26,080 nt of DNA from a virus (taxonomy: Duplodnaviria > Caudoviricetes): IMG/VR virus record IMGVR_UViG_3300005764_000075, positions 1 to 26,080 of that record; one strand, given 5' to 3'. Positions 9,535 to 25,795 of the stretch are shown here, in pieces. The first letter of the stretch is position 1, and each line of letters begins with the position of its first letter. Both the position numbers and the translations under genes were made by a program. The notes under the pieces are model-generated. The model was not told the DNA's origin. It did no database searches and was given only the letters and a program-made list of their open reading frames with translations.

Positions 9535-10152
9535 TTACGATCCTATTTCGTCACACGTGATCCCTTCGAATCGGATGCGAGTCTGGCCCTCGCGAGTGTT
9601 GAGTTCAAGTGCCGAGCGGCACCATGCCTCGCGCAAGACGTAGGTCTTGCCATTGGCCAGTTCCGCCGTCACCGTCGCTTGCGTCACAGCTTCCACGTCG
9701 TCCATCGACAGCAACGGGTCGAGCGACACGTCGCCTTCGATGTACGGCACGCGCGGCAGTTCGCTGTAACCATGGATGTAGTCCTGTCCCGCGATGCCAG
9801 CGCGTTCCAGCGCCGATGGCGAGACGGTGAAGTTGCCCCTCAAAGGGTAGAGGCTGCCGTCGACTTTTAGGAAGGCGATCCAATTTCTTCGCAACGACTC
9901 GCTAAGTCGTTACCGCCTTTCGGCTGCTACATATTCCTATGCAGTGGAGACTATGTCATCACCCTCGGAAGAGGGGCCGGGCGCTTCGGGCCGCTTGGCC
10001 CTACGATCTTTCGATCTAGTCGTTGCACCTTCCGCCTTTGCGGCAGCTTGGCTCAAAGTTGTCCGATCTGGACGTTCTTTGAATTCACCCGGATTTGTTC
10101 GGTATCGATTGCTCGATAGAGGGGCCAATTAACCCGCAATTCGTTGCGCCAT
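9535..10152 (-). CDS. Tail tube protein, spliced: exon 1 10152-10132 and exon 2 9879-9535 (121 aa)
   Basis: Exon 1 MAQRIAG has an AAGGAG RBS and is followed by an in-frame TAA. Joining it to exon 2 gives MAQRIAGIAFLKVDGSLYPLRGNFTVSPS..., a coherent Mu-like tube protein. Confidence 0.88.
9880..10131 (-). ncRNA. Group I self-splicing intron, probably subgroup IA2, no internal ORF
   Basis: The 5' exon ends in U with P1 GGGU/GCCC, and the intron ends in G. Core elements: P AAUUCAAAGAA, Q CAACUUUGAGCCAAG, R GCAACGACUA (10026-10017), S GACAUAGUC (9957-9949). P3 CCGGGU/GCCCGG. Two hairpins lie between P7 and P3' (GAUC-GAAA-GAUC, GGGCC-AAGC-GGCCC). P8 CCCUC/GAGGG. Confidence 0.93.
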
Positions 10153-10837
10153 TCTCTTTCTCCTTTGTTGGAAACCGACGGATTCTTTTCCGCCAATTCT
10201 GATTTCCAAGGCCCTTGCCAGTACGCCCGGCGCTAATATTAGCGCGCTGTTCAGGCGACAACTTTGCACCAAGCCTTGTGCGCTTCCCGCGCATCCGCAG
10301 AGAAATTGCATCACGTTGCTCTTGCGGCATGATGCGTCCTGCTGCGTTTTTATTTCCGACAGCGTACTTATTTCCGAGCATTTTTACCCGACGTTTGGCG
10401 CGCTCTTGTTCGGACTGTTTCTGGCCAGTCCGGCTTTTATTGCCCAAAGCAAGCCGACCAAATTTAGCTCGCAACTCTAGTGACCTGTTTGCGTGAGCCG
10501 CGCGCTTCCGCGCGAGCGTTTCTTCGGAATCTTTGCGACCTATTTGATTTGCGCTAATTTTTCTTCGCACTTCTGGTGAATAAGTTTTACCAGACGTGCC
10601 GCCAGAATTTGCATTCCATCCAATGCCAGCCGTTGGCCGATATCCAATCTCTTTTTCAAGACATTTATTCCGTGTGCCTACAAAAAGAATTTCTACGCCA
10701 TCAAATTTGAATCGCCCTTTTGATCGGTGTTCACTCAAACGCTGTTGAAGTTTATTTGTGATGCCAACATAGCCATCATTTTCTGGAACGCTGCAGTTGA
10801 CATCATAAAGCCAGTAGACACAGCATTGTTCAGCCAT
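10085..10837 (-). CDS. GIY-YIG homing endonuclease with NUMOD3-like repeats
   Basis: VYWLY...YVGIT...RLSEH...E...N motif set; basic repeats (GKTYSPEVRRKIS, GRKDSEETLARK, GAKLSPEQRANIS); GGAGG RBS; visibly more AT-rich than its neighbours. Confidence 0.88.
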   Translation of the reverse strand: MAEQCCVYWLYDVNCSVPENDGYVGITNKLQQRLSEHRSKGRFKFDGVEILFVGTRNKCLEKEIGYRPTAGIGWNANSGGTSGKTYSPEVRRKISANQIGRKDSEETLARKRAAHANRSLELRAKFGRLALGNKSRTGQKQSEQERAKRRVKMLGNKYAVGNKNAAGRIMPQEQRDAISLRMRGKRTRLGAKLSPEQRANISAGRTGKGLGNQNWRKRIRRFPTKEKENGATNCGLIGPSIEQSIPNKSG

Positions 10838-10865: not shown

Positions 10866-10912
10866 GAATCGGCGCGATGATTTCAGGCACCGCGCCGATT
10901 CGCATTATATCA
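10866..10912 (-). promoter_or_regulatory. Candidate extended -10 promoter (TGnTATAAT) and leader hairpin for the endonuclease
   Basis: The minus strand reads TGATATAAT at 10912-10904, followed by the inverted repeat GAATCGGCGCG...CGCGCCGATTC. Confidence 0.5.
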
Positions 10913-12421
10913 GATGATCGCTGTATCACCCCTATTGTACTGCAAACGGAACTGAGCAAGCACGGCGAAGATTCGTAAAGCGTTGACCAAATCCGGCGGA
11001 TAAAGGACGTTCAATCTATTAGGGTCCTGTGAATCGCGCTCGACGATCAGGTTGTCCTTGAACGCTTGCGCATTTTCCACCAGACCGTTGAACTCGTCGA
11101 AGCGATATTGCGCGACCAGTTCAGCCTTGATTGTCTTCGGCGTAACGATAGCCTGCCCGGCCCCGAAACGCGTCCCATCATCCGCTAGTTTGTGACGCGG
11201 ATATTTCGACGTGATCGCCTGCCGCTGATTGCGTATCAGCTTGGCCAAGGTTGCCAGCGTCGTGACGTCGGTATAGGCGTCATCGCTCTGGCCGTAGAGG
11301 TTGACCGTCGCTGTCGTCGTTTCCCGGGCGATCACCGGAACGCCATCGGCATAGGTTCGCTGCGTGGCCAATCCGGCTGTCGATAGCGTGTTCAGTTCCG
11401 GCGTATTAAAGCGGGTCTGATTCGGCGCTGGCAGCAGACCCTCCAGATGCAACGATTGCAATGGACGCGCCGGATCGTTGGACAGCGCGCGAGCCGCCTT
11501 GCCGCAATAGGCCGCCGCCCACATGAAGTTGGGCGACTGCGCCGTATCCTCGACGGCGAGCACCGACAGTTGCGCCGAGTTGCGCGTCCCGCCGAATGCC
11601 AAGACCGTGGAGTAGGTGCCACGCAGGCAAGTGAAGATGTGGCCATAGAGTTGCCGCAACCAGCCCCAGCGCCCGTTATCAGAGAAACCGAATTCGGTTT
11701 CCCATGCCGTCAGCGAGTTGCTGTCGGTCTCGGCGATAGCAACGAACTCAACCGCCGTTTCACCGAGATTGGCGATGGCGTTGGTGAAGCTCGGTACGCC
11801 AGCGCCGCCAGCGGGCTGTACGATGGTCAGCGTCAAGCCGGTCGGCAAAATCTCGCCGCCGATTGCGCCGTAATAGTTGTATGTGATGTCGACATCGTTG
11901 CCGCTCACACCTTTCCATTTCACATTGACCGGACACAGGCCAGCCGCCACGGTGCCTTTGACCACCGGCAAATTCGGATTGGCCGCGATGGCATTACCGA
12001 TGTTAGTGGCAACGATGCTCACGGTGTCACCGGCTTGCACCGCAACCGGCACATGGATGCCAGCGATGTAAAGATCAATCGTGCCAGCCGCCGTCGGCGG
12101 TGACGCCACCGTGATCGAACCGGCGGCTGCGGTCGAGCCTTCCAAGACCGGCAGGCCCCACACCTCTTGGCTGAAGTTGTTGGCAAAGAATGCCGTGAAC
12201 ATCATCGCCAGTTGCGAGCCTTGGCCGAATGCCGCATCGGCCTGCGCCTGCGAGGCAATCGGCAGCGGCACGTCCTGCGCAGCGGTGCCAGCCGTCAGTT
12301 TGATGCCGACCAGCAGCGCTGGCATTCGGATGATGGATGAACCGGCTTTCGATGGGTCCACCTCGACGTAGTAGAGCGGAATTCTCCAGCCAGCCGGGAT
12401 GTTGTTGAAGCTAACGGGCAT
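10910..12421 (-). CDS. Tail sheath protein (Mu gpL-like)
   Basis: MPVSFNNIP..RIPLYYVEVD start, DPARPLQSL, KYPRHKLADDGT, RLNVLYPPDLVNALRIFA end; 503 aa. Confidence 0.95.
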   Translation of the reverse strand: MPVSFNNIPAGWRIPLYYVEVDPSKAGSSIIRMPALLVGIKLTAGTAAQDVPLPIASQAQADAAFGQGSQLAMMFTAFFANNFSQEVWGLPVLEGSTAAAGSITVASPPTAAGTIDLYIAGIHVPVAVQAGDTVSIVATNIGNAIAANPNLPVVKGTVAAGLCPVNVKWKGVSGNDVDITYNYYGAIGGEILPTGLTLTIVQPAGGAGVPSFTNAIANLGETAVEFVAIAETDSNSLTAWETEFGFSDNGRWGWLRQLYGHIFTCLRGTYSTVLAFGGTRNSAQLSVLAVEDTAQSPNFMWAAAYCGKAARALSNDPARPLQSLHLEGLLPAPNQTRFNTPELNTLSTAGLATQRTYADGVPVIARETTTATVNLYGQSDDAYTDVTTLATLAKLIRNQRQAITSKYPRHKLADDGTRFGAGQAIVTPKTIKAELVAQYRFDEFNGLVENAQAFKDNLIVERDSQDPNRLNVLYPPDLVNALRIFAVLAQFRLQYNRGDTAII

Positions 12422-13891: not shown

Positions 13892-14538
13892 ACCGGGAAC
13901 CGCATGAAGTGTCGCAGCAGATCGAACACCGCGCGCTGCGTTGCGCTGCCGATCATGCCCAGCGTGCCAGCCCCGGCACCGCCGAGCAGCGCGTTGGGAT
14001 CGAAGTACGCCACGCGGCTCTCCTTGTGCGAAATCAATCGGACGCCACCGGTCACGAGGCCGCGCTGCGCCTGAATGTAAGCCTCGCGTGTCAGCAGCAG
14101 GCACGACTGCTGCACCGCCAGCGGCGCTTTCACCGGCACCTCGTAGCCGCCGATATAGGTCACCGTCACCGGCTCGGCCCATGGCCCGTTGACGGCGTAG
14201 AGCGTGCCGGATCGCGAATCGAGATCGTACTGGATGTCGGTGCCGCCATCGGTCGTCACGCTGTCGATGTCGGACTGCTCGACCGGATAATGCGAGAGAA
14301 AAATCCGCTTGTCAGAACGCCAGTTGATCTCGCGGAAGGTCTCGCTGACTTTCTCGCGCGCAAAAATCCGGTTGCAGTAAGTCTCTATTTCGCCCGATGC
14401 CCACTTGATGAACAGTTGAATCATGTCATCGCGCGTGGCGTCGGACTGCGCGATCTTCAGCGCGGTCTTGGCATCATATAGCGTCACCAAGGAATGGTCC
14501 GGAGCCTCTTCGATGACGCGCATGGTGATCTGCATCAC
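13888..14538 (-). CDS. Head-tail connector (gp6-like)
   Basis: LVTLYDAKTALKI..D..D....I..AS..IETYCNRIF and VTVTYIGGY..P motifs. Confidence 0.8.
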   Translation of the reverse strand: MMQITMRVIEEAPDHSLVTLYDAKTALKIAQSDATRDDMIQLFIKWASGEIETYCNRIFAREKVSETFREINWRSDKRIFLSHYPVEQSDIDSVTTDGGTDIQYDLDSRSGTLYAVNGPWAEPVTVTYIGGYEVPVKAPLAVQQSCLLLTREAYIQAQRGLVTGGVRLISHKESRVAYFDPNALLGGAGAGTLGMIGSATQRAVFDLLRHFMRFPV

Positions 14539-15881
14539 GATCCCCGCAGACTGTCGAACACTTCGAACAGATCGCGCATCGACAAGGGCGCGCCGCGCTC
14601 GCCGTCACTCAGGAGCGGAACGACAATGAAATTCCGCCGATCAATTTCCCATCCGGCGACCTCACGGCCGGGCGCGCCTTGCTCTCCGCGTGGTCCAGCC
14701 GGTCCACGCTCGCCGGGCTTGCCGGTCTTGCCGACCGGACCCGACTTCCAGCCGGGGCCGGGACATGGACCCGGGTTGTCGTGCTTGGCGACAAACCAAC
14801 TTGCATTGAGCGTGACGATGTCGAGCGCATGGTAATTTTCATTTGCATCGTAGGTGTCCTTTATCGTCAAAGAGCGGCCGTCATGACCATCGTTGCCGTC
14901 AACGCCGGGCGCTGCCAGACAAATCCAGTCCGCAACTTTTGAATTACCGGCATTCGGCTGCGGCTCGCGGGCCGTATCGAACTGTGCCTGATATGTGCCG
15001 CCCTTGTGCACGACTACGTCACCTTCGTAATGCACGCGCTCGGTCCACGCTTTCGCGGGCGGCAATTTGCCGGGCCGTCCTTCCGGTCCCTGCGGACCTT
15101 GCGGACCGGGATCGCCCTTCAGGCCGGGTGCTCCGTCTTTTCCGGCTGGTCCTGCGGGACCGGTTGCTCCGATAATGGTTTCTCCGGGCTCGCCTCGCTC
15201 ACCTCGCTCACCTCGTTGTCCGGCTGCTCCGATGTTGCCTGTTGCTCCGGTCGGCCCGGCTGGTCCGTCTTGTCCGGCTGGTCCGGTTTCTCCTGCGGGT
15301 CCTGCTGGCCCGGCTGGTCCGGCGATACCGGCGGGGCCGGGGCTTCCGTCGAATCCTTTTTCCCCCTTTTCCCCCGCTTGCCCCTGCGGCCCGCATGGAC
15401 CGGCAGGGCCGACAATAGTTTCTCCCGCTTCGCCTTGCGCGCCGCGTTCGCCGCGTTCGCCTTTTTCGCCCGGCGCGCCCGGATAACCCCTCTCGCCTTG
15501 CGCGCCTTGCGCGCCTGTTTCGCCTTTTGCCCCCGCTTCGCCTTGCGGCCCGTCCTTCCCATCTGCGCCATCCTTTCCATCTTTGCCGTCGTGTAATTCC
15601 GCCAAGCGCTGGGCGATCTCGCCGTCCAGCTTCATGGTGAGCAGTTGATGCGTGGCCTTGATCTCGGCAACAAGTTCAAGATTGGCCGCACGCAAAGTCG
15701 CGATGACTTCGCGTGATTGTGCGGCCATCAAATCGTATTCCCGCCGCCACTCGCGCCGCTGCTCGGAAATGACAAAGCCCAACGCCTCGCGTAATGCGTC
15801 AGGCAGTGTGTCGTCTATCGTATTGTTCTGCGGTGCTGAGAAGACTGCGGGCATAGTGCTGTCCGCGTTCCCTGCTGTCAT
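14535..15881 (-). CDS. Collagen-like (Gly-X-Y repeat) protein
   Basis: Long Gly-X-Y run (~15070-15590) after a helical N-terminus. Probable start ATG 15881 after AAGGA, overlapping the portal 3' end; alternative start 15854. Confidence 0.8.
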   Translation of the reverse strand: MTAGNADSTMPAVFSAPQNNTIDDTLPDALREALGFVISEQRREWRREYDLMAAQSREVIATLRAANLELVAEIKATHQLLTMKLDGEIAQRLAELHDGKDGKDGADGKDGPQGEAGAKGETGAQGAQGERGYPGAPGEKGERGERGAQGEAGETIVGPAGPCGPQGQAGEKGEKGFDGSPGPAGIAGPAGPAGPAGETGPAGQDGPAGPTGATGNIGAAGQRGERGERGEPGETIIGATGPAGPAGKDGAPGLKGDPGPQGPQGPEGRPGKLPPAKAWTERVHYEGDVVVHKGGTYQAQFDTAREPQPNAGNSKVADWICLAAPGVDGNDGHDGRSLTIKDTYDANENYHALDIVTLNASWFVAKHDNPGPCPGPGWKSGPVGKTGKPGERGPAGPRGEQGAPGREVAGWEIDRRNFIVVPLLSDGERGAPLSMRDLFEVFDSLRGS

Positions 15882-17286
15882 TGGCAAAATCCTTTTGAGC
15901 CGGTTTTGGCGGCGGTTCGCCCGCTGCCGGTGCCGGTGGTGCCGGTGGGACAGGTGACTTCGTGCCAGCCGCGCCGACCGGCGACGTCGGCGGTGCTGTT
16001 GCGGGAACCTGTCCACCAATGACGCCCGGGATCGCCGCTGCTGCCGATAGGGGCACTTGTTGCTGTTGCATTCTCGGCTCCCCACCGAACGGTTTTTCGG
16101 GCAGATCAAATTCGTCGCGTGCTTCATTCGGCGATTGGATGCCTGACGTGACTGCGCGCGCATGCGCCTCGATGCGCGTCTTAAAATCGGAACGCAGCAA
16201 CGCGGCGGTGTCGAATTCCAGATACTCGTGCGGCAACCCTTCAAGCTGGAACAGCTTGCCGAACGCCTCTTCGATGTGGTTGAGGCAGAAGCCCAAGCCG
16301 GAAGCGATCCAGCTTTGCATCAGCGCTTCGGTCGAACCCATCGGAGCGCCGCCGATGCCGAGTATCTGCAACGGGATGCGATAGGCCAGCGCGATCTTCT
16401 GGTCGCTCAGCTTCATGATGTCGGCGAGTTGCGATTGTTCTGGCGTTGACGTGATCGTTTGCGCCTTCAGTCCTGCGGTCAGCACCGCCGTGCCGCCCGC
16501 ATTCAAGCCACTCGCCTGCTCGTTCCAGCGGTCGCGCAGCGCGGCGACCTGATCCTTGTCCAAGACCATGTCGGTCTGCAACACCGTCGAGGGCCGCGCC
16601 TGATTGAGATAGAACCTGATCTGTTGCCCGACGATTGCGTCGGTCAGCATGACATCGCGGGCGATGGCCATCAGCGGACTGTCGCCGCGCAATTCGTCGT
16701 ATGACGTATGCAGCCGTATATGCAGCACGTCGCGCTCGGGCACGATCAGCGGATATTCCGGCAGCAGCTTCTGCACAATTTTGTTGCCGCCAAGGCTGTA
16801 AAACACTTCGCCGGTTTCGGCGACGAGGGCTTGGCATTGCTGCGGCTTCATCAGATGTAGTGAAGAAATTTCAAAGCGATTATTGCGTAGAGCAAGAGCG
16901 TAGCAATTACCATCCAGATAAAGAGAGCGCGTCCCATTGAGCATGAAGTCCGAAATCGTCTGATAGGCATTCGGCACGCGCAGGATGCGCGAGAGGTCCG
17001 ACGTCATGATGCGATTGCGCCCGCCATTGTCGAGCTTGATCCAGTGGTCGCCGGGCAGCATGGCGACGGTTTCCGCATAGGCGGACACGCAGGCTTCGAC
17101 CAGCGCCGATGGCGAATAGCCGCCGGTCAGCGTGTAGCCGTCCTGCCACCAGTTCAGATTGTTGCCGACGCTGGCGGGCAGAACTCCGCCCGAGACCGGG
17201 AGGAACCAAGGTCCCGGGCGATACTGGCCTTCCAAGCCGATCATGCGCTGGACAGTTGCCAGCGCGCGCGAGAGTACGTTCGCCAC
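15799..17286 (-). CDS. Portal protein, HK97 family
   Basis: PNAYQT..F......LYLDGNCY, DVLHIR, G.SPL, IALAYRIP, SPNEAR motifs. Confidence 0.95.
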   Translation of the reverse strand: MANVLSRALATVQRMIGLEGQYRPGPWFLPVSGGVLPASVGNNLNWWQDGYTLTGGYSPSALVEACVSAYAETVAMLPGDHWIKLDNGGRNRIMTSDLSRILRVPNAYQTISDFMLNGTRSLYLDGNCYALALRNNRFEISSLHLMKPQQCQALVAETGEVFYSLGGNKIVQKLLPEYPLIVPERDVLHIRLHTSYDELRGDSPLMAIARDVMLTDAIVGQQIRFYLNQARPSTVLQTDMVLDKDQVAALRDRWNEQASGLNAGGTAVLTAGLKAQTITSTPEQSQLADIMKLSDQKIALAYRIPLQILGIGGAPMGSTEALMQSWIASGLGFCLNHIEEAFGKLFQLEGLPHEYLEFDTAALLRSDFKTRIEAHARAVTSGIQSPNEARDEFDLPEKPFGGEPRMQQQQVPLSAAAAIPGVIGGQVPATAPPTSPVGAAGTKSPVPPAPPAPAAGEPPPKPAQKDFANDSRERGQHYARSLLSTAEQYDRRHTA

Positions 17287-19954: not shown

Positions 19955-20541
19955 GGATTTGTTTCCTAGCTTTTTCGGTTGTGGTCGCAATGCGCGCAAC
20001 CGGGCCTGAATTTCCTTTATGTGTCCGTGGCCTGCATACGTTGAATCGGCTGCTGGCAACTTGAAAACCCTGCAAAAACCTTTATCTTTTAGGTGAGGGG
20101 TAAGGCCCCCTCAGATGCCCCTGCCTACAAGGCCCTTTCACGCTGGGCCACCGCAGGGGAGGTCCCGGTCCCGAGGGGAAAAAGTCGCGCTCCGTCGCTC
20201 GCCCTCCCGCCAAGCCCCAGATGGGCACAGCTAGTGCAAGGGAGTCCGCGCCGCCAGACATGACGGGGAAAGTGCCCGAGAGGGCCGACGCATCCTCGCC
20301 GCCCAAGCTTTGCAAGAGCTTCGGCTTTCACTCTGGTCCCGAGAAAAACATTCGCGACACACCGCTAATCAAGGTGTGTTGCGTCCATGCCCTACGATCT
20401 CCTTTCGACTTAGCAACCAACGAAAAGAGTAGGTCGCGAAAGCCGAGACCGACGGGCATGAACGCAACACATTTCCGCGAATAACCAAGGGCGCTACCGC
20501 AATCGCCGAACGATTGACGCGCCAGACGCCGGATACACGAC

Positions 20542-20746
20542 CGGCCGCAGTCGGGTGAAAGCCCCGACACTGAATTGACTGTGCGGCGTAAGACTTCGCC
20601 ATCCCAGTCCCGCAATTGAGCGAATAGCTGCAAGTGGCCCGAAAGGCTTGAAGGGCAGCCGGGGGAAAGTTTGGCGAGACGTAGTGTGGCAGCCTTGCCA
20701 GCGAACGACCACTGTTGCGCACAGTCGCTAAACAACGGAGTCGAAA
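20542..20746 (+). ncRNA. Putative structured leader RNA of the rightward operon
   Basis: Non-coding stretch dense in helices: GTCGGGT-GAAA-GCCCCGAC, GCCGCA/TGCGGC, TCGCCA/TGGCGA, GCC-CGAAA-GGC, TGGCA/TGCCA, ACTGT/ACAGT. Confidence 0.5.
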
Positions 20747-20917
20747 ATGAAAACTGTACGAAAAGGCAAAGAGAAACTTCCCTTCACGTGCGGCGAGAAG
20801 GCAATCATCCAGAATGCCTTGGAGAAATACGCCGAAGGTTTCGAGGTTCAGTATCCGGTGCAGTGCAAGCAAATCCTCAAGCTTGCAAAGCGCATCGGAC
20901 GATCCGAACCAGAGTGA
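20747..20917 (+). CDS. Hypothetical protein (56 aa, MKTVRKGKEKLPFTCGEK...)
   Basis: Below the ORF-track cutoff; has the same GGAGTCGAAAATG start context as downstream genes; TGA lies 1 nt before the first repeat element. Confidence 0.75.
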   Translation: MKTVRKGKEKLPFTCGEKAIIQNALEKYAEGFEVQYPVQCKQILKLAKRIGRSEPE

Positions 20918-20918
20918 T

Positions 20919-21006
20919 CACTAAGCGCCGCCTACGGGCGGCGTCGTAGTGCTCATGCACTCGCCCGCTTGCAACGGGCGTTCACAAGCAAACGGAGTCA
21001 AAAATG
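20919..21006 (+). repeat. Structured intergenic element, copy 1
   Basis: CACTAAG-CGCCGCC-TACG-GGCGGCG-TCGTAGTGC-TCAT-GCACTC-GCCCG-CTTGCAA-CGGGC...GGAGTCAAAAATG. Confidence 0.9.
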
Positions 21007-22047
21007 CTTGCACCTACTGTCAACTTGGAAATTGAAAATCCAGTCACCTCGAAAGAGCTAGTTGACCTCTTGATCATGCACTTCGCCGTCAATCAGGCGG
21101 TGATGGTGTGGGGTGACTCAGGCATTGGCAAATCTGAACTGATGGACTTGATTTGCGCACTGACCGGGCGAAGGAAGGTTGATATTCGCCTGAACGTGCG
21201 CGAGCCGGTCGATCTGCGCGGCTTGCCCGTTCCTGATCTGGCAAAGCTAGTCACCAAATGGCTAGTCCCCAGCGAGTTGCCGCCCTCGGACGGCAGTTGG
21301 GGTCCGACGTTGCTCGTGCTCGATGAAATCAACACCGGCACGATGCAGATGATGTCGGTTGCCATGCAACTGGTAAACGAGCGGTGCATCGGTGAACACC
21401 GCTTGCCGGATAACTGCGCAGTTGTCGCCATGGGCAATCGTCCCAAGGACAGCCGTGCGGTGATCCAGATGCCCAAGCCGCTGCGCAAGCGCTTTGCTCA
21501 TTACAGCATGGTCGTCGACCATGATGCGTGGGTCGAGCACTGCAAGCGGACCGGTCTTACTCCCGAGATCATCGCCTTCATTCGCTTCCGGCCTGAGTAC
21601 CTGATCCGCGAAGCGCAGGGCGATGAAAACGCCAGCGCCAATCCCCGCACGATCTACAAGTGCGGCGTCTATGTGAAGCAACCCCCTCGGTTGCGGCACA
21701 AGGCATTCGTCGCGCTGGTCGGCAAAGACATTGGCAGCGAGATGGAAAGCTTTGTTTCGATGTATCAAGCGCTATCGAACATCGACGACATTCTTGCCCA
21801 TCCCGACACCGCCAATGTGCCGAGCGAGCGTTCTGAAGCCTACGCGGTCGCTACCGCGCTGGGCCGTTTGGCGGATCGTAAAAACTTCGCCAACGTCATC
21901 AAGTACGCCCGGCGTCTGGGCAAAGAGTACAGCCGCGAACTGGAAATCGTCGCGGTGACCGATGCCACGTATCGCGATCCGAAACTTGCCGAAGTGAAAG
22001 CCTACGGCGAGTGGGCGGTCGACAACGCGGACATCACTGCTCAATAA
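21004..22047 (+). CDS. AAA+ ATPase, MoxR/dynein-related type
   Basis: Walker A GDSGIGKS, Walker B LLVLDEIN, DLRGLP, MGNR...RF, NPR motifs. Confidence 0.9.
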   Translation: MLAPTVNLEIENPVTSKELVDLLIMHFAVNQAVMVWGDSGIGKSELMDLICALTGRRKVDIRLNVREPVDLRGLPVPDLAKLVTKWLVPSELPPSDGSWGPTLLVLDEINTGTMQMMSVAMQLVNERCIGEHRLPDNCAVVAMGNRPKDSRAVIQMPKPLRKRFAHYSMVVDHDAWVEHCKRTGLTPEIIAFIRFRPEYLIREAQGDENASANPRTIYKCGVYVKQPPRLRHKAFVALVGKDIGSEMESFVSMYQALSNIDDILAHPDTANVPSERSEAYAVATALGRLADRKNFANVIKYARRLGKEYSRELEIVAVTDATYRDPKLAEVKAYGEWAVDNADITAQ

Positions 22048-22053
22048 ACGCTT

Positions 22054-22141
22054 CACTAAGGACGGCGGTAAGTCCCGCCGTCTCGTAGTGCAGCATGCAC
22101 TCTGGCGCTTGCAACGCCAGCAATTCAAGGAGTCGAAAATG
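22054..22141 (+). repeat. Structured intergenic element, copy 2
   Basis: CACTAAG-GACGGCGG-TAAGTC-CCGCCGTC-TCGTAGTGCA-GCA-TGCACTC-TGGCG-CTTGCAA-CGCCA...GGAGTCGAAAATG. Confidence 0.9.
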
Positions 22142-23668
22142 TTACAGAACAGAATCGACACGGAACGACAAGCGGCCGACGCCATCGCTAAGGCGCGCGC
22201 GGCTCTCGTTCTCACTCGGAAGTTCTACGCGGTGCTGGTTGGCCAAGTTGTTGCCAAGCCGTGCTGGAGCATTCCGACAATGGCAACGGACTCGGTGACG
22301 CACTACTACAATCCCGCGTTCATTGTCAGCCTGCCCCCGGTCGAAGTGCTGGGGACGCAGGCGCACGAAAGCGAGCATGACGCGCGCCATCATTCGACGC
22401 GGCGTCAAGGTCGCGACCCCAAAGACTGGAATCGAGCCTGCGATTACGCAATCAACGGCGACCTGATGGCCGAGGGGTTCGTGCTGCCGAAGGGTGCGCT
22501 CTATCGTGAGGACTTCGTCGGGCTTTCCGCCGAGGAAATCTACCGCATCCTTCAGCTAGAGAAACAAAAACAGACACCTCCGCCGCCGCAGGGTGGCGAA
22601 GGCGAGAAATGCGAAGACGGCGACGACAGCGATAAGCCGTCCGACGATAAATCCGAGGAATCTGAAAATGATTCCGACGATGAAAAGTCGGACGACGAAT
22701 CCGATGGCGGCGACGGATCGGACGATGACGAATCTGAGGATGAAGAGTCCGAGGACAAGGAATCGGACGATGGCGACGGCGAAGGTGAAACCGAAGCCGA
22801 AGGCGACGACGAAGCCGGTGACGAAGCCGGTGACGAGGAAGCCGACGGCGATGGCGATGGCGACGACACTGGCGAAGACACCGATGTCGAGGCCGACGCC
22901 GAAGACGAAGATGAGAACGGTGACGGTGATAAAGGCGACGAGCCGACATCATGCGGCGAAGATGGCGGATGCGGCGAAGTGCTCGACGCGCCCGGCGACG
23001 AAGCCGAAGTTGCCGATCTCGATGCCAAATGGGAAGTCGTTACGCGGCAAGCGGTCGCGTTGGCCAAGAAGGCGGGCACGTTGCCCGGTCATTGGGCAAC
23101 CGAGATCGAGCGCCGCAAGACGCCGACCCAAGACTGGCGCGCCATCCTGCGTGAATACATCGATGCAGGCGCACGCCGGATCGAAACGTGGAACCGACCC
23201 AATCGGCGGTTCGCGCATTCCGGGTTTATCCTTCCCGGCAATCAACGCGACGGCATCAACAAGGTCGTGTTCATTATCGACGCTTCCGGCAGCATGGTTG
23301 GCCAGCACGTCAAGGTGGCCAACGAGTTGCAGGCCGCGCTCGACGATGGCGCGATCAGCGAAGTGGTCTTGGTCTACATCGACACCGAAGTCTATCGCGT
23401 TGATAGGTTCGCCGATGGCGACAAGATCGAATTCGGCGAGATCAAGGGCGGCGGGACGGCGATGTTGCCTGCTTTCCGCTGGGCCGCCGAGAACGAGTCG
23501 GATGCAAACCTGATCGTTTGCCTGACCGACTTGTATATCGAAACCATCACGCCAGCCGATGAACCGGCCTGCCCGGCGCTTTGGTGCGCGTATGGCGATC
23601 CACGCGCAATCAAGTCCGAAGGCGCGAAATTGCCTTGGGGCAAAGTTGTCGACGTGGACAACGAGTGA
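22139..23668 (+). CDS. Putative metallopeptidase plus vWA-like domain protein (DUF2201 family)
   Basis: TMATD...YYNP.F, HESEH (HExxH), WNRACDYAIN, acidic linker, then DASGSM (MIDAS DxSxS), GGGT and LTD. Start 22139 after GGAG. Confidence 0.88.
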   Translation: MLQNRIDTERQAADAIAKARAALVLTRKFYAVLVGQVVAKPCWSIPTMATDSVTHYYNPAFIVSLPPVEVLGTQAHESEHDARHHSTRRQGRDPKDWNRACDYAINGDLMAEGFVLPKGALYREDFVGLSAEEIYRILQLEKQKQTPPPPQGGEGEKCEDGDDSDKPSDDKSEESENDSDDEKSDDESDGGDGSDDDESEDEESEDKESDDGDGEGETEAEGDDEAGDEAGDEEADGDGDGDDTGEDTDVEADAEDEDENGDGDKGDEPTSCGEDGGCGEVLDAPGDEAEVADLDAKWEVVTRQAVALAKKAGTLPGHWATEIERRKTPTQDWRAILREYIDAGARRIETWNRPNRRFAHSGFILPGNQRDGINKVVFIIDASGSMVGQHVKVANELQAALDDGAISEVVLVYIDTEVYRVDRFADGDKIEFGEIKGGGTAMLPAFRWAAENESDANLIVCLTDLYIETITPADEPACPALWCAYGDPRAIKSEGAKLPWGKVVDVDNE

Positions 23669-23669
23669 G

Positions 23670-23762
23670 CACTAAGGGCGGCCCCGTGCGGGCCGCCTCA
23701 TAGTGGTCATATCGATCACTCCCGCGCTTGCAGCGGGTTCACATGCATAGGAGTCAAAAATG
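23670..23762 (+). repeat. Structured intergenic element, copy 3
   Basis: CACTAAG-GGCGGCCC-CGTGC-GGGCCGCC-TCATAGTGGTC-ATATC-GATCACT-CCCGC-GCTTGCA-GCGGG...GGAGTCAAAAATG. Confidence 0.9.
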
Positions 23763-24653
23763 AACAAGCATGTTTCTGTTCCGTCCGTCCTGCAACGCAA
23801 GGCGGTGCTGGTCTCGCTCAACATCTCGACGTGGGCGGCGCGCAAGCTTGACCGCAAGGTCACGCGCGAAACCAACCAGCGCTATCATGCGGCGGCGGAC
23901 GCAGGCCGCTTCAACAAGCTTCTGATCGAAGCGGCACGCCTGAAGGAGATCAACGGATGCGTGTCTCGCGCCCGCGATCTCTACTACTCGATGACCAAGC
24001 CTTGGGCGGATGAAGGTCAGCGCATTCTGCCGAACGCGCTGTATCTTGATTTCGTCAATCAACTGCGCGTCATCAAGCAGGACTTTGAGAAAGCGGCCGA
24101 GGATTTCTGCCGCGAGTATCCGTCCTTTGTCGCCGAGCGCAAGTCAGTGCTCAACGGCATGTTCAACGAAGCGGACTATCCGACCCCCGGCATGATCCGA
24201 GGCAAGTTCAAGCTTGAACATCGCTTCTCCAATCTGCCTGCGGCCGGTGACTTCCGCAGCGATGATCTGGACGCGGAAACCGTCGAGGACATCCGCGCCG
24301 AGATCGAGAAGACGACGACGGCCGTCGAGCACGAGGCCATGGCCCACACCAAAACACAGATCGTCGAGGTGGTCGGCCATATGGCCAAGAAGCTGGGCGA
24401 GTACAAGAGCGAAGGCGGCGACGAGCGGCGTTTCTTCTTCGACTCGCTGGTCGACAACATCCGCGATCTGGTCAAGTTGCTGCCTGCCTTCAACCTGACC
24501 GGCGACACGAAGCTCGATGCGCTGATCAAGCGGATCGACAAGGAATTGTGCAGCGAAGATGCGAAGGTGCTGCGCAAGAACGACGACTTGCGCGAAGGCG
24601 TGCGCAAGAGTGCCGAGGACATCCTTGCCGAAGTCGAGCGCGTGATGGCCTAA
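23760..24653 (+). CDS. Conserved phage hypothetical protein, DUF3150-like
   Basis: AVLVSLNISTWAARKLD, TKPW...G.RILP, F...Y, DYP...IRGKF, FNLTGD; this kind of protein is often found beside AAA/vWA pairs. Confidence 0.65.
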   Translation: MNKHVSVPSVLQRKAVLVSLNISTWAARKLDRKVTRETNQRYHAAADAGRFNKLLIEAARLKEINGCVSRARDLYYSMTKPWADEGQRILPNALYLDFVNQLRVIKQDFEKAAEDFCREYPSFVAERKSVLNGMFNEADYPTPGMIRGKFKLEHRFSNLPAAGDFRSDDLDAETVEDIRAEIEKTTTAVEHEAMAHTKTQIVEVVGHMAKKLGEYKSEGGDERRFFFDSLVDNIRDLVKLLPAFNLTGDTKLDALIKRIDKELCSEDAKVLRKNDDLREGVRKSAEDILAEVERVMA

Positions 24654-24658
24654 CGAAG

Positions 24659-24753
24659 CACTAAGGGCGGCCCCGTGCGGGCCGCCTCGTAGTGTTCCGG
24701 TGAACACTCGCCCGTCTTGCACGGGCGTCTTACTTAAAACGGAGTCGAAAATG
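24659..24753 (+). repeat. Structured intergenic element, copy 4
   Basis: CACTAAG-GGCGGCCC-CGTGC-GGGCCGCC-TCGTAGTGTTC-CGGT-GAACACTC-GCCCGT-CTTGC-ACGGGC...GGAGTCGAAAATG. Confidence 0.9.
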
Positions 24754-24969
24754 AACCTCAATCCAAACTGCTGTGGCGGTCATTGCTGGTTCGACAAAGG
24801 CGAAGTCCGCGTCTATCCGATAGGCGCTGGCGGCAATCTCATTCTTTGTCGCGCCTGCTGGAATCACGAGAACGCCTACAACCGCTGGCGCGGCCGGGAA
24901 ACCGGTCGCCCGGAAAACTGGCCCGTCCGCAACTGGGACGAAGCGGAGGTCTATGCCAATGCAGAATAA
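24751..24969 (+). CDS. Small Cys-rich hypothetical protein (72 aa), possible Zn-binding
   Basis: GGAG RBS; NCCGGHC...LCRACW. Confidence 0.75.
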   Translation: MNLNPNCCGGHCWFDKGEVRVYPIGAGGNLILCRACWNHENAYNRWRGRETGRPENWPVRNWDEAEVYANAE

Positions 24970-25153
24970 AATCTGTCCTTTTGGCGGCCAGCATCCTAGT
25001 GCCCGCGAAGTCCGCGAGTTCTGCCTGTATCTGCGCAACTGCACAGACCGGCAGGTTCGCGGCGTCTACGAGAAAGAAAAAAAGGCCAAACGTGAAGTCT
25101 ATATGGCGCTCGCCGAAGTCGAAGCCGAGCGGCGCGGTTTGTTTTTCCTGTGA
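24953..25153 (+). CDS. Hypothetical protein (66 aa)
   Basis: GGAGGT RBS 5' of the ATG; overlaps the previous gene's end. Confidence 0.65.
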   Translation: MPMQNKICPFGGQHPSAREVREFCLYLRNCTDRQVRGVYEKEKKAKREVYMALAEVEAERRGLFFL

Positions 25154-25173
25154 TTCACTAAAGGAGTCCAAAA

Positions 25174-25569
25174 ATGAAACTCTACCAACACATCGCTACA
25201 CTCGTACAGGCACGCGACAACTGTCTGGCCAACCATAATACGCACTGGTTCGGCGAGCACACCGAGAGCCTTGTGCGGCTGGGCAAAGAGCGACTGCCCA
25301 GCGGCAGCGGTTTCGACAACGGCACGACCGTCGATCTTGAGCAATCAAGACCGCAGCGGCTCGTGCTGCAAACCGCATTCCATCACATGGACGAAAACGG
25401 CTCATATGATGGCTGGGAGGATTACACCGTCGTGGTCACGCCCGATCTAGCGAGCGGGTTTGACCTGCATGTCTACGGCGTCAATCGCAATGACATCAAA
25501 GAGTACATCGGCGATGTCTTCCACAATGCGCTGAGCGAGGAAGGCGAAATCGAAAAGCTGCCTGCCTGA
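25174..25569 (+). CDS. Hypothetical phage protein (131 aa)
   Basis: AAGGAG RBS; LPSGSGFDNG...FHHMDENGSYDGW; ends just before the terminator. Confidence 0.8.
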   Translation: MKLYQHIATLVQARDNCLANHNTHWFGEHTESLVRLGKERLPSGSGFDNGTTVDLEQSRPQRLVLQTAFHHMDENGSYDGWEDYTVVVTPDLASGFDLHVYGVNRNDIKEYIGDVFHNALSEEGEIEKLPA

Positions 25570-25572
25570 AAC

Positions 25573-25612
25573 AATCCCCCCTGTGGAGCGATCCACCGGG
25601 GGGATTTTTTTT
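25573..25612 (+). terminator. Intrinsic (rho-independent) terminator
   Basis: AATCCCCCC-TGTGGA-GCGA-TCCACC-GGGGGGA followed by T8, directly after the last gene. Confidence 0.88.
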
Positions 25613-25795
25613 GCCCATTTTCTTGAATTGTGCGGGCCATCCAGCCTTGCAAGCCGGATGGCCCTGATCCGGGGCCTGCGCGGAGTCGCGAAAATCTTTC
25701 GGTGTCGTGAGCCCGAAAGCAACGCTGTGACGCGGCCCGGCGGACTTCCTTAATCTATGTGCGCGCTGCCCCGCTGTCCACGCGAGGCTGGCGCA

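Follow-up and report, generated by a model that had tools for sequence, protein, structure and literature searches.

The DNA analysed here (IMG/VR virus record IMGVR_UViG_3300005764_000075, positions 1 to 26,080; hereafter the window) is a 26-kb phage contig in which four copies of an RNA element lie between the genes of a plus-strand operon. The copies belong to a real, conserved and uncatalogued two-state RNA family. In state A, a 5' strand pairs across a GC hairpin with a middle strand containing AGUG, forming helix A; in state B, the same middle strand pairs with a partner further downstream, forming helix B, which is followed by a hairpin with a UGCA loop, a linker and the Shine-Dalgarno (SD) sequence of the next gene. 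The element is probably a processing site, most likely for the host RNase III, that would be cut before AGUG and would thereby release and cap the downstream message; we assign this reading a probability of about 0.6. Judged by analogy, the element would not constitute a new class but would work like the signals of phages T7 and SP82. What is predicted in addition, from the second conserved pairing, is a refolding cap at the cut end. A translational relay acting through the SD sequence, the function proposed in the initial annotation of this DNA, is unlikely.

The motif CACTAAG was found at 20919, 22054, 23670 and 24659 and nowhere else on either strand of the window, in agreement with the four copies of the initial annotation and their layout from a stop codon to the next AUG. 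CACUA begins 1, 6, 1 and 5 nt past the stops of the upstream open reading frames (ORFs) in copies 1 to 4, and all four copies end in GGAGUC-R-AAAAUG. Their parts are located as follows.

20914-21006 (+): copy 1, whole element
20914-20923 (+): copy 1, 5' strand of helix A, which holds the stop UGA at 20915-20917
20924-20946 (+): copy 1, GC hairpin with a cUACGg loop
20947-20956 (+): copy 1, middle strand, with the predicted cut before A20948
to 20961 (+): copy 1, helix B partner, which ends here; UGCA-loop hairpin at 20962-20980
20994-20999 (+): copy 1, SD sequence; AUG at 21004
22049-22141 (+): copy 2, whole element; the upstream stop UAA ends at 22047
22049-22058 (+): copy 2, 5' strand of helix A; GC hairpin at 22059-22085
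22087 (+): copy 2, AGUG, with the predicted cut just before it
to 22101 (+): copy 2, helix B partner, which ends here; UGCA-loop hairpin at 22102-22120
22129 (+): copy 2, SD sequence; AUG at 22139
23665-23762 (+): copy 3, whole element
23665-23674 (+): copy 3, 5' strand of helix A, which holds the stop UGA ending at 23668
23675-23700 (+): copy 3, GC hairpin; AGUG at 23702
to 23720 (+): copy 3, helix B partner, which ends here; UGCA-loop hairpin at 23721-23737
23750 (+): copy 3, SD sequence; AUG at 23760
24654-24753 (+): copy 4, whole element; the upstream stop UAA ends at 24653
24654-24663 (+): copy 4, 5' strand of helix A; GC hairpin at 24664-24689
24691 (+): copy 4, AGUG
to 24708 (+): copy 4, helix B partner, which ends here; UGCA-loop hairpin at 24709-24727
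24741 (+): copy 4, SD sequence; AUG at 24751

With a covariance model derived from 43 copies, including those of the window, the four window copies scored 60-91 bits, and no fifth full copy was found in the window, where the next full-length match on the plus strand scored 10 bits. The state-A hairpin of each copy is more stable than its shuffled counterparts (z -4.6 to -6.1, none of 200 shuffles as good); the double hairpins of state B gave z values of -1.6 to -4.0, copy 2 being the weakest, with 15 of 200 shuffles as good. Helix A comprises about 10 bp, with the UGA stop forming its foot in copies 1 and 3, so that the upstream pairing of the initial annotation exists but extends well beyond the five base pairs of CACUA. 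As had been surmised there, no described family matches: Rfam 15 gave no match at E≤1 over any window copy, and six related loci searched at E≤2 yielded five weak matches only (E 0.08-1.5), all below the gathering threshold.

Relatives were gathered by protein- and pattern-based scans, followed by iterated nhmmer searches over 351 loci and the window. The 100 distinct matches obtained were reduced to 94 by removal of six antisense shadows and to 88 by removal of six partial, mis-anchored or duplicate matches. The family, window included, consists of these 88 distinct copies in 36 loci, all of them in phage or metagenome contigs; the copies are kin, and counts over the 88 are not independent. 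Five copies lack helix B, which leaves 83, of which 82 were folded; one copy was re-anchored by hand. Six whole records, which had contributed to the covariance model, each contain 5-7 full-length copies on the same strand inside 4.3-6.6 kb and none elsewhere in the record.

Searches further afield were largely negative. A loose pattern scan of 120 loci showed the element in L018 and L067 only. Among cultured phages no DNA match to copy 3 was obtained, and the homologues among the matches listed (ATPase 26-31% identical, capsid 26%) do not identify the host. No copy was present in 80 loci of bacterial chromosomes with distant ATPases. A search of 2 + 151 bacterial genomes with the model, in which 26 candidates were scored per genome without a positive control, returned no match and shows little; the rRNA flanks of the searched order are unlike those of one alphaproteobacterial group. 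Searches of the literature, which did not extend to subscription papers such as those of 1983 and 1994 on SP82, yielded no description of the family or of a cap formed by refolding where RNase III cuts phage RNA. In the searched portion of the supplementary files of PMC10690425, a paper on candidate structured RNAs of phages, four motifs and two contig numbers were without a match; the family may be an unnamed candidate in the alignments of that paper, which are probably in its remaining files.

Covariation was measured on a 43-copy MAFFT alignment and compared with shuffles, which disregard relatedness. State A is paired in 88.6% of the cells as opposed to 76.0% in the shuffles, and helix B in 95.3% as opposed to 86.7%, with none of 500 shuffles as good in either case. 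Helix B shows two-sided changes at four of its six pairs, and pairing falls to at most 57% in slid registers. More telling for selection on both helices than the shuffle statistics are the three-way changes: in copy L189+6312 AGUC in the middle strand is matched by GACU in each of the two partners, and in L165-10743 the middle strand reads CGUG and both partners are adjusted. Two mutually exclusive helices that share the AGUG strand, and selection at the level of RNA, had been claimed from the four window copies, and both claims hold for the family, in which 83 of the 88 copies keep the covarying helix B. G-U pairs recur in every helix, the loops include the RNA-type sequences cUACGg, cUUCGg and GCAA, and the spacer of helix B varies in length.

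The two states are similar in predicted stability. The energy of A minus that of B has a median of -0.9 kcal/mol, and 55 of 82 copies lie within 2 kcal/mol, which is partly expected since one strand is common to both helices. When the stop and 6 nt are masked, the median probability of B rises from 0.19 to 0.98 (n=63). Of the 68 copies with a callable stop, 45 have the upstream gene ending at the UGA of helix A, and the remaining callable stops lie 3-15 nt upstream of that position; UGA/UCA is retained in 13 copies whose true stop is upstream. Among the 20 copies without a called stop, about seven probably stop at helix A too, and several have no plausible ORF ending nearby (e.g. L276+3451, L182+4239 and L181+1114). 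The gaps between genes span 76-119 nt. Inspection by eye revealed mini-ORFs of 2-5 codons that end at or just before helix A in some copies without a long upstream gene (L189 near 5300, L153 near 870, L124 near 3620).

State A resembles an RNase III substrate. The whole hairpin measures 16-21 bp in 83 of the 88 copies and contains a 1x2 or 2x2 internal loop in 65. The middle strand fits the E. coli RNase III consensus, in the form quoted in passages of PMC4357697 and PMC5141509, at eight of eight positions in 48 copies and at seven or more in 75. The stem of the E. coli pre-16S rRNA (NC_000913), GUGGGCACUC/UAGUGCUCAC, is nearly identical to helix A of copy 3, GUGAGCACUA/UAGUGGUCAU, and a pair of helix A-like motifs flanks the 16S rRNA in 4 of 18 other genomes. 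Since AGUG-NN-CAU is nearly palindromic, helix A can be read from either end. RNase III rules set out in part of PMC1540722, which apply to E. coli and may not be those of the host, were scored over 38 cut registers. The register before AGUG was best or tied in 65 of the 88 copies, followed by the register at the foot of the helix in 26. The R1.1 register of T7 was recovered by this scoring, and so, tied, was the E. coli -115 site; PMC8708148 places the RNase III cuts of E. coli pre-16S rRNA at -115/+33.

In the AGUG register, position 2 of the proximal box is U-A in 83 copies and G-C/C-G in none of the 88, and position 1 is G-C in 72. All four window copies satisfy three of the four rules in this register, as compared with one and none for copies 2 and 4 in the foot register. 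Within the middle strand, conservation is highest at the four bases AGUG (84 of 88 copies, and 12 of the 14 without UGA), a stretch as long as a proximal box. The distal box contains U-G in 38 copies and U-A in 9; for the Aquifex enzyme the distal box is described as dispensable in a passage of PMC3074117.

The position of the predicted cut coincides with the start of helix B. The pair just above AGUG is formed in state A in 87 of 88 copies and in state B in 26 of 83, such that B starts at the predicted new 5' base. In 82 of 82 copies, a product starting at the A of AGUG would have 0-1 unpaired bases at its 5' end, and helix B abuts the next hairpin without a gap in 69 of the 82. Presence of the B partner weakens the predicted hold of the upstream RNA on the cut product from -7.5 to -1.8 kcal/mol. 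Any cut assigned to the start of B leaves a paired 5' end automatically, which makes this agreement true by construction; the part that is not circular is that the RNase III rules independently choose that position.

The following sequence of events is proposed. As the polycistronic RNA is transcribed, a hairpin of 16-21 bp with a small internal loop would form from the strand that contains the stop, the GC hairpin and the middle strand. RNase III would read helix A with AGUG/CACU as the proximal box and would cut at the top of helix A, before AGUG and/or at a staggered position of the 5' strand. The partner strand of helix B would then displace the upstream RNA, and B would stack on the UGCA-loop hairpin with 0-1 unpaired 5' bases, while the upstream RNA would retain the stable GC hairpin as its 3' end. 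A ribosome that terminates on UGA may aid the release of the product. The operon would thus yield messages that are stabilised individually and carry a ribosome site of their own, as happens at the early sites of T7. A 5'-monophosphate end speeds decay and 5' hairpins protect, as stated in passages of PMC3997798 and bioRxiv 10.1101/2023.03.12.532304.

Several points argue against cleavage by RNase III before AGUG. The cut is a prediction from sequence, made with rules derived from E. coli that may differ from those of the host. The likeness to RNase III sites was noticed after the data had been seen. In PMC5371410 no new site matched the RNase III consensus fully, and a passage in PMC8708148 describes RNase III sites as lacking a strong common consensus. 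Position 2 of the favoured register is G-C, not the preferred A-U, in 78 of 88 copies; the distal box fits the rules by half, with U-A at its position 1 in 9 of 88 only; the proximal box contains A.C mismatches in 13 copies and G.G mismatches in 9; and 47 of 88 copies carry a G-C/C-G antideterminant in the GC arm. In E. coli, the cut in the 16S stem is at the opposite (GUG) end of the equivalent helix. AGUG could also be invariant owing to its two pairings together with common descent, and a paired end would likewise result from cuts placed 1-3 nt further in (81, 73 and 66 of 82 copies). Finally, the complete phages L121 and L122, whose ATPases are closer relatives (69% and 63%), contain no copy, which shows that the element can be missing from this operon.

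Among the closest known systems are the early signals of T7 (R0.3-R1.3, with R1.1 as the model substrate): in both cases homologous hairpins composed of stem, internal loop and stem recur between the genes of a single polycistronic transcript. Five such RNase III signals are ascribed to the T7 precursor in a passage of PMC3867540, and single-strand cuts by RNase III are said in part of PMC8708148 to drive maturation and protection. Helix A read from AGUG matches the R1.1-derived rules at positions 4, 2 and 1 of the proximal box in most copies. In T7, however, the arm that bears the consensus is the upper stem and the loop is larger, whereas in the element the upper arm is a variable GC hairpin and the conserved lower stem holds the stop codon. 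Unlike the T7 signals, the element has a conserved second partner, helix B, followed by the UGCA-loop hairpin. The likeness is one of architecture.

A similar arrangement is seen in SPO1. By eye, five of its intergenic hairpins consist of two stems, lower and upper, separated by an internal loop, and have a 3' strand that can re-pair just downstream. They share the a-b-a' layout of the element; in three of the five the foot includes a stop codon, and behind two of them another hairpin precedes the SD sequence. SPO1 and SP82 differ from the element in sequence and in the phylum of their host. We take the SPO1 hairpins to be sites of Bs-RNase III; the SPO1 record that was consulted does not annotate them in this way. 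Panganiban and Whiteley reportedly described Bs-RNase III sites in the early mRNA of SP82/SPO1 in 1983. The E. coli pre-16S stem shares with the element a nearly identical helix of 9-10 bp, flanked there by the cuts at -115/+33, but extends into a long duplex, with cleavage at the GUG end. The element has no such extension below helix A, and its favoured cut is at the AGUG end.

The initial annotation interpreted the element as a relay in which ACUC, set free in state A, pairs with GAGU of the SD sequence and keeps the next gene silent until the RNA is switched to state B by a terminating ribosome. The flip is thermodynamically feasible, as indicated by the masking results, but exposure of the next ribosome site is not borne out. 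ACUC and GAGU are complementary in all four window copies, yet this 4-bp helix is formed in none of their four state-A minimum-energy folds, and among the homologues a 4-mer complement within 16 nt of the start codon was found in 25 of 85 copies only, which is the loss of pairing that the annotation itself had named as refuting. The freed strand binds the ribosome site worse than scrambled strands (299 of 300 scrambles as good or better). The cost of opening the ribosome site does not fall from A to B: the median difference is -0.19 kcal/mol, with A harder to open by more than 1 kcal/mol in 11 of 82 copies and B in 20. We consider this relay very unlikely; a processing site, which the annotation listed among its alternatives, fits better. 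Coupling of translation through another output and without a cut, namely through the flip to B, the melting of a pairing between stop strand and ribosome site, or a protein on the helix B/UGCA-loop hairpins, is improbable to a lesser degree. No scramble (0/300) pairs as well with the ribosome site as does the stop-containing strand, albeit not in a copy-specific manner (48 of 300 cross-copy shuffles as good), and masking lowers the cost of opening from a median of 6.5 to 5.9 kcal/mol, by more than 1 in 22 of 63 copies, a comparison without a control for the upstream partners removed. The UGCA loop is conserved and also occurs alone before other operon genes. As in the coupling by RNA unfolding of E. 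coli rpmI-rplT and MS2 coat-lysis, treated in passages of PMC12548453, a terminating ribosome could melt the helix that contains the stop, and the structure lies within the reach of the upstream ribosome, all callable stops being in helix A or within 15 nt. The inhibitory structure over the downstream ribosome site that defines such coupling is, however, not conserved in the element. The gaps of 76-119 nt contrast with the short distances at which coupling is most efficient according to part of PMC12548453, and the RNase III-like sequence and register would be left unexplained.

Processing and translation might also be combined: a ribosome that terminates at the stop codon in the foot of the substrate, if it arrives ahead of the enzyme, would flip the RNA to a non-cleavable B, and at every junction the translation of the gene would decide if the message undergoes cutting and capping; we regard a switch of this kind as conceivable though unlikely. 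Slightly less credence is given to its specific form in which A, possibly cut at the foot, is the RNase III substrate and B a non-cleavable form trapped by the ribosome that terminates on UGA. The coincidence of UGA with the upstream stop, the near-equal energies and the response to masking are consistent with it, as are the retention of UGA/UCA in copies that stop upstream and the rank of the foot register, second best and the one used in the E. coli 16S stem. Against it stand the lack of another arm underneath helix A (194 of 200 shuffles did as well); the 14 copies in which UGA is missing, including window copies 2 and 4, which lose the foot-register rules and of which six gain an antideterminant; the cut of the 5' strand at the foot, which would land just ahead of the stop; the copies without a plausible upstream ORF end; and the common strand that partly accounts for the similar energies. 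It is also quite improbable that the cut, with the same capped outcome, is made by something other than RNase III, be it a phage nuclease, trimming as far as helix B by RNase E/J, or self-cleavage. Any 5' end generated just upstream would be shielded by helix B, but there is no Rfam ribozyme match, the RNase III-like helix would lack an explanation, and an RNase III domain (PF14622) is encoded in none of five related phage records, three of which are at least 90% complete. Least probable is an element that acts as DNA, either as an operator or as a single-strand recombination site for gene cassettes. It would account for inverted and direct repeats at gene boundaries, for the gene order around the copies, which varies between phages, and for a sense hairpin whose advantage in stability over its antisense counterpart is small (50 of 88), but not for G-U pairs in all helices, the RNA-type loops, the variable B spacer and the strict orientation to stop and ribosome site.

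Other candidate features were examined and rejected. A lower stem beneath helix A is not distinguishable from shuffles, as mentioned above. A stimulator of stop-codon readthrough does not fit the mixed downstream frames (gap modulo 3 of 0, 1 and 2 in 16, 26 and 21 cases, n=63). For pairing of the B loop with the SD sequence 278 of 300 scrambles were as good, and kissing of the last loop is incompatible with the loss of the palindrome in CGCA variants. With regard to a terminator-attenuator, a scan of the window, which found 6 sites where 6.7 are expected by chance, listed only the last hairpin of copy 4, and the linkers of the family are mostly A/C-rich as opposed to the U tract that an attenuator requires.

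The element is modular: five of the 88 copies do without helix B, and the last hairpin is also found alone before other genes. The UGCA/CGCA-loop hairpin, together with the A/C-rich linker and the SD sequence, stands alone at 7880-7924 of L131, on the minus strand of L125 ahead of its 115-aa ORF, before 651 and 3306 in L182, and before 2179 and 4915 in L189. These lone occurrences before other operon genes identify the hairpin as a separate module, and its conserved loop suggests a protein ligand. Phages L121 and L122 possess other repeated signals in front of genes, such as the short GC hairpins of L121 ahead of AAUCAUAGGAG.

The plus-strand operon spans 20747 to 25569, and the head and tail genes, among them a prohead protease/capsid fusion, are encoded on the minus strand of the window. 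The operon, inferred to be expressed early, has the following composition.

20747-20917 (+): first operon ORF, 56 aa, no family; SD/start motif as elsewhere, no element in front
21004-22047 (+): MoxR-like AAA ATPase, 347 aa (Pfam AAA_5; phrog_1297)
22139-23668 (+): DUF2201 putative metallopeptidase plus VWA-like protein, 509 aa
23760-24653 (+): 297-aa protein; weak DUF3150 match, 20.1 bits, under the cut-off of 24.9
24751-25569 (+): three small ORFs (72, 66 and 131 aa), no family
25576-25611 (+): operon-closing, terminator-like hairpin and U tract, read from the sequence and absent from the list of the consensus terminator scan

The second small ORF overlaps the first and the third comes after a 20-nt gap; neither is preceded by an element. 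In the gap before the last gene (25153-25176), CACTAA runs straight into GGAGTC, which resembles an element with its middle deleted. Past the terminator-like hairpin, at 25634-25700 (+), a CUUGCAA-loop hairpin followed by GGAGUC resembles the last module of the element; a weak match of 25574-25671 in L123 (3266-3361, E 0.015) lies directly past the leader-like segment of that locus. The operon is preceded by a non-coding leader of about 690 nt (20060-20746, +), which is possibly a separate structured RNA. It contains several GAAA-looped hairpins, folds more stably than shuffles (z -3.6, 0/20) and has no Rfam match; its part 20578-20727 matches L123 3110-3256 at 75%, and shorter parts match L289, L189 and L169.

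On the minus strand, a group I intron at 9927-10837 (Rfam RF00028, 75.8 bits across its 3' part) contains the ORF of a GIY-YIG endonuclease (10085-10837). It is situated between a 503-aa ORF (10910-12421) and the ORF 9535-9894, which likely represent the tail sheath and tube region. A long ORF with collagen-like Gly-X-Y repeats (14535-16244, -) adjoins a portal-like gene.

The 88 copies supply three-way compensatory changes and a prediction of the cut to a single base, which makes the cap and any gating by ribosomes directly testable, and builders of synthetic operons could use the unit of about 95 nt as a portable part that cuts and stabilises the message. If the proposal is true, the element shows how a phage stabilises messages cut by an endonuclease, through a second pairing that buries the 5'-monophosphate end at once.

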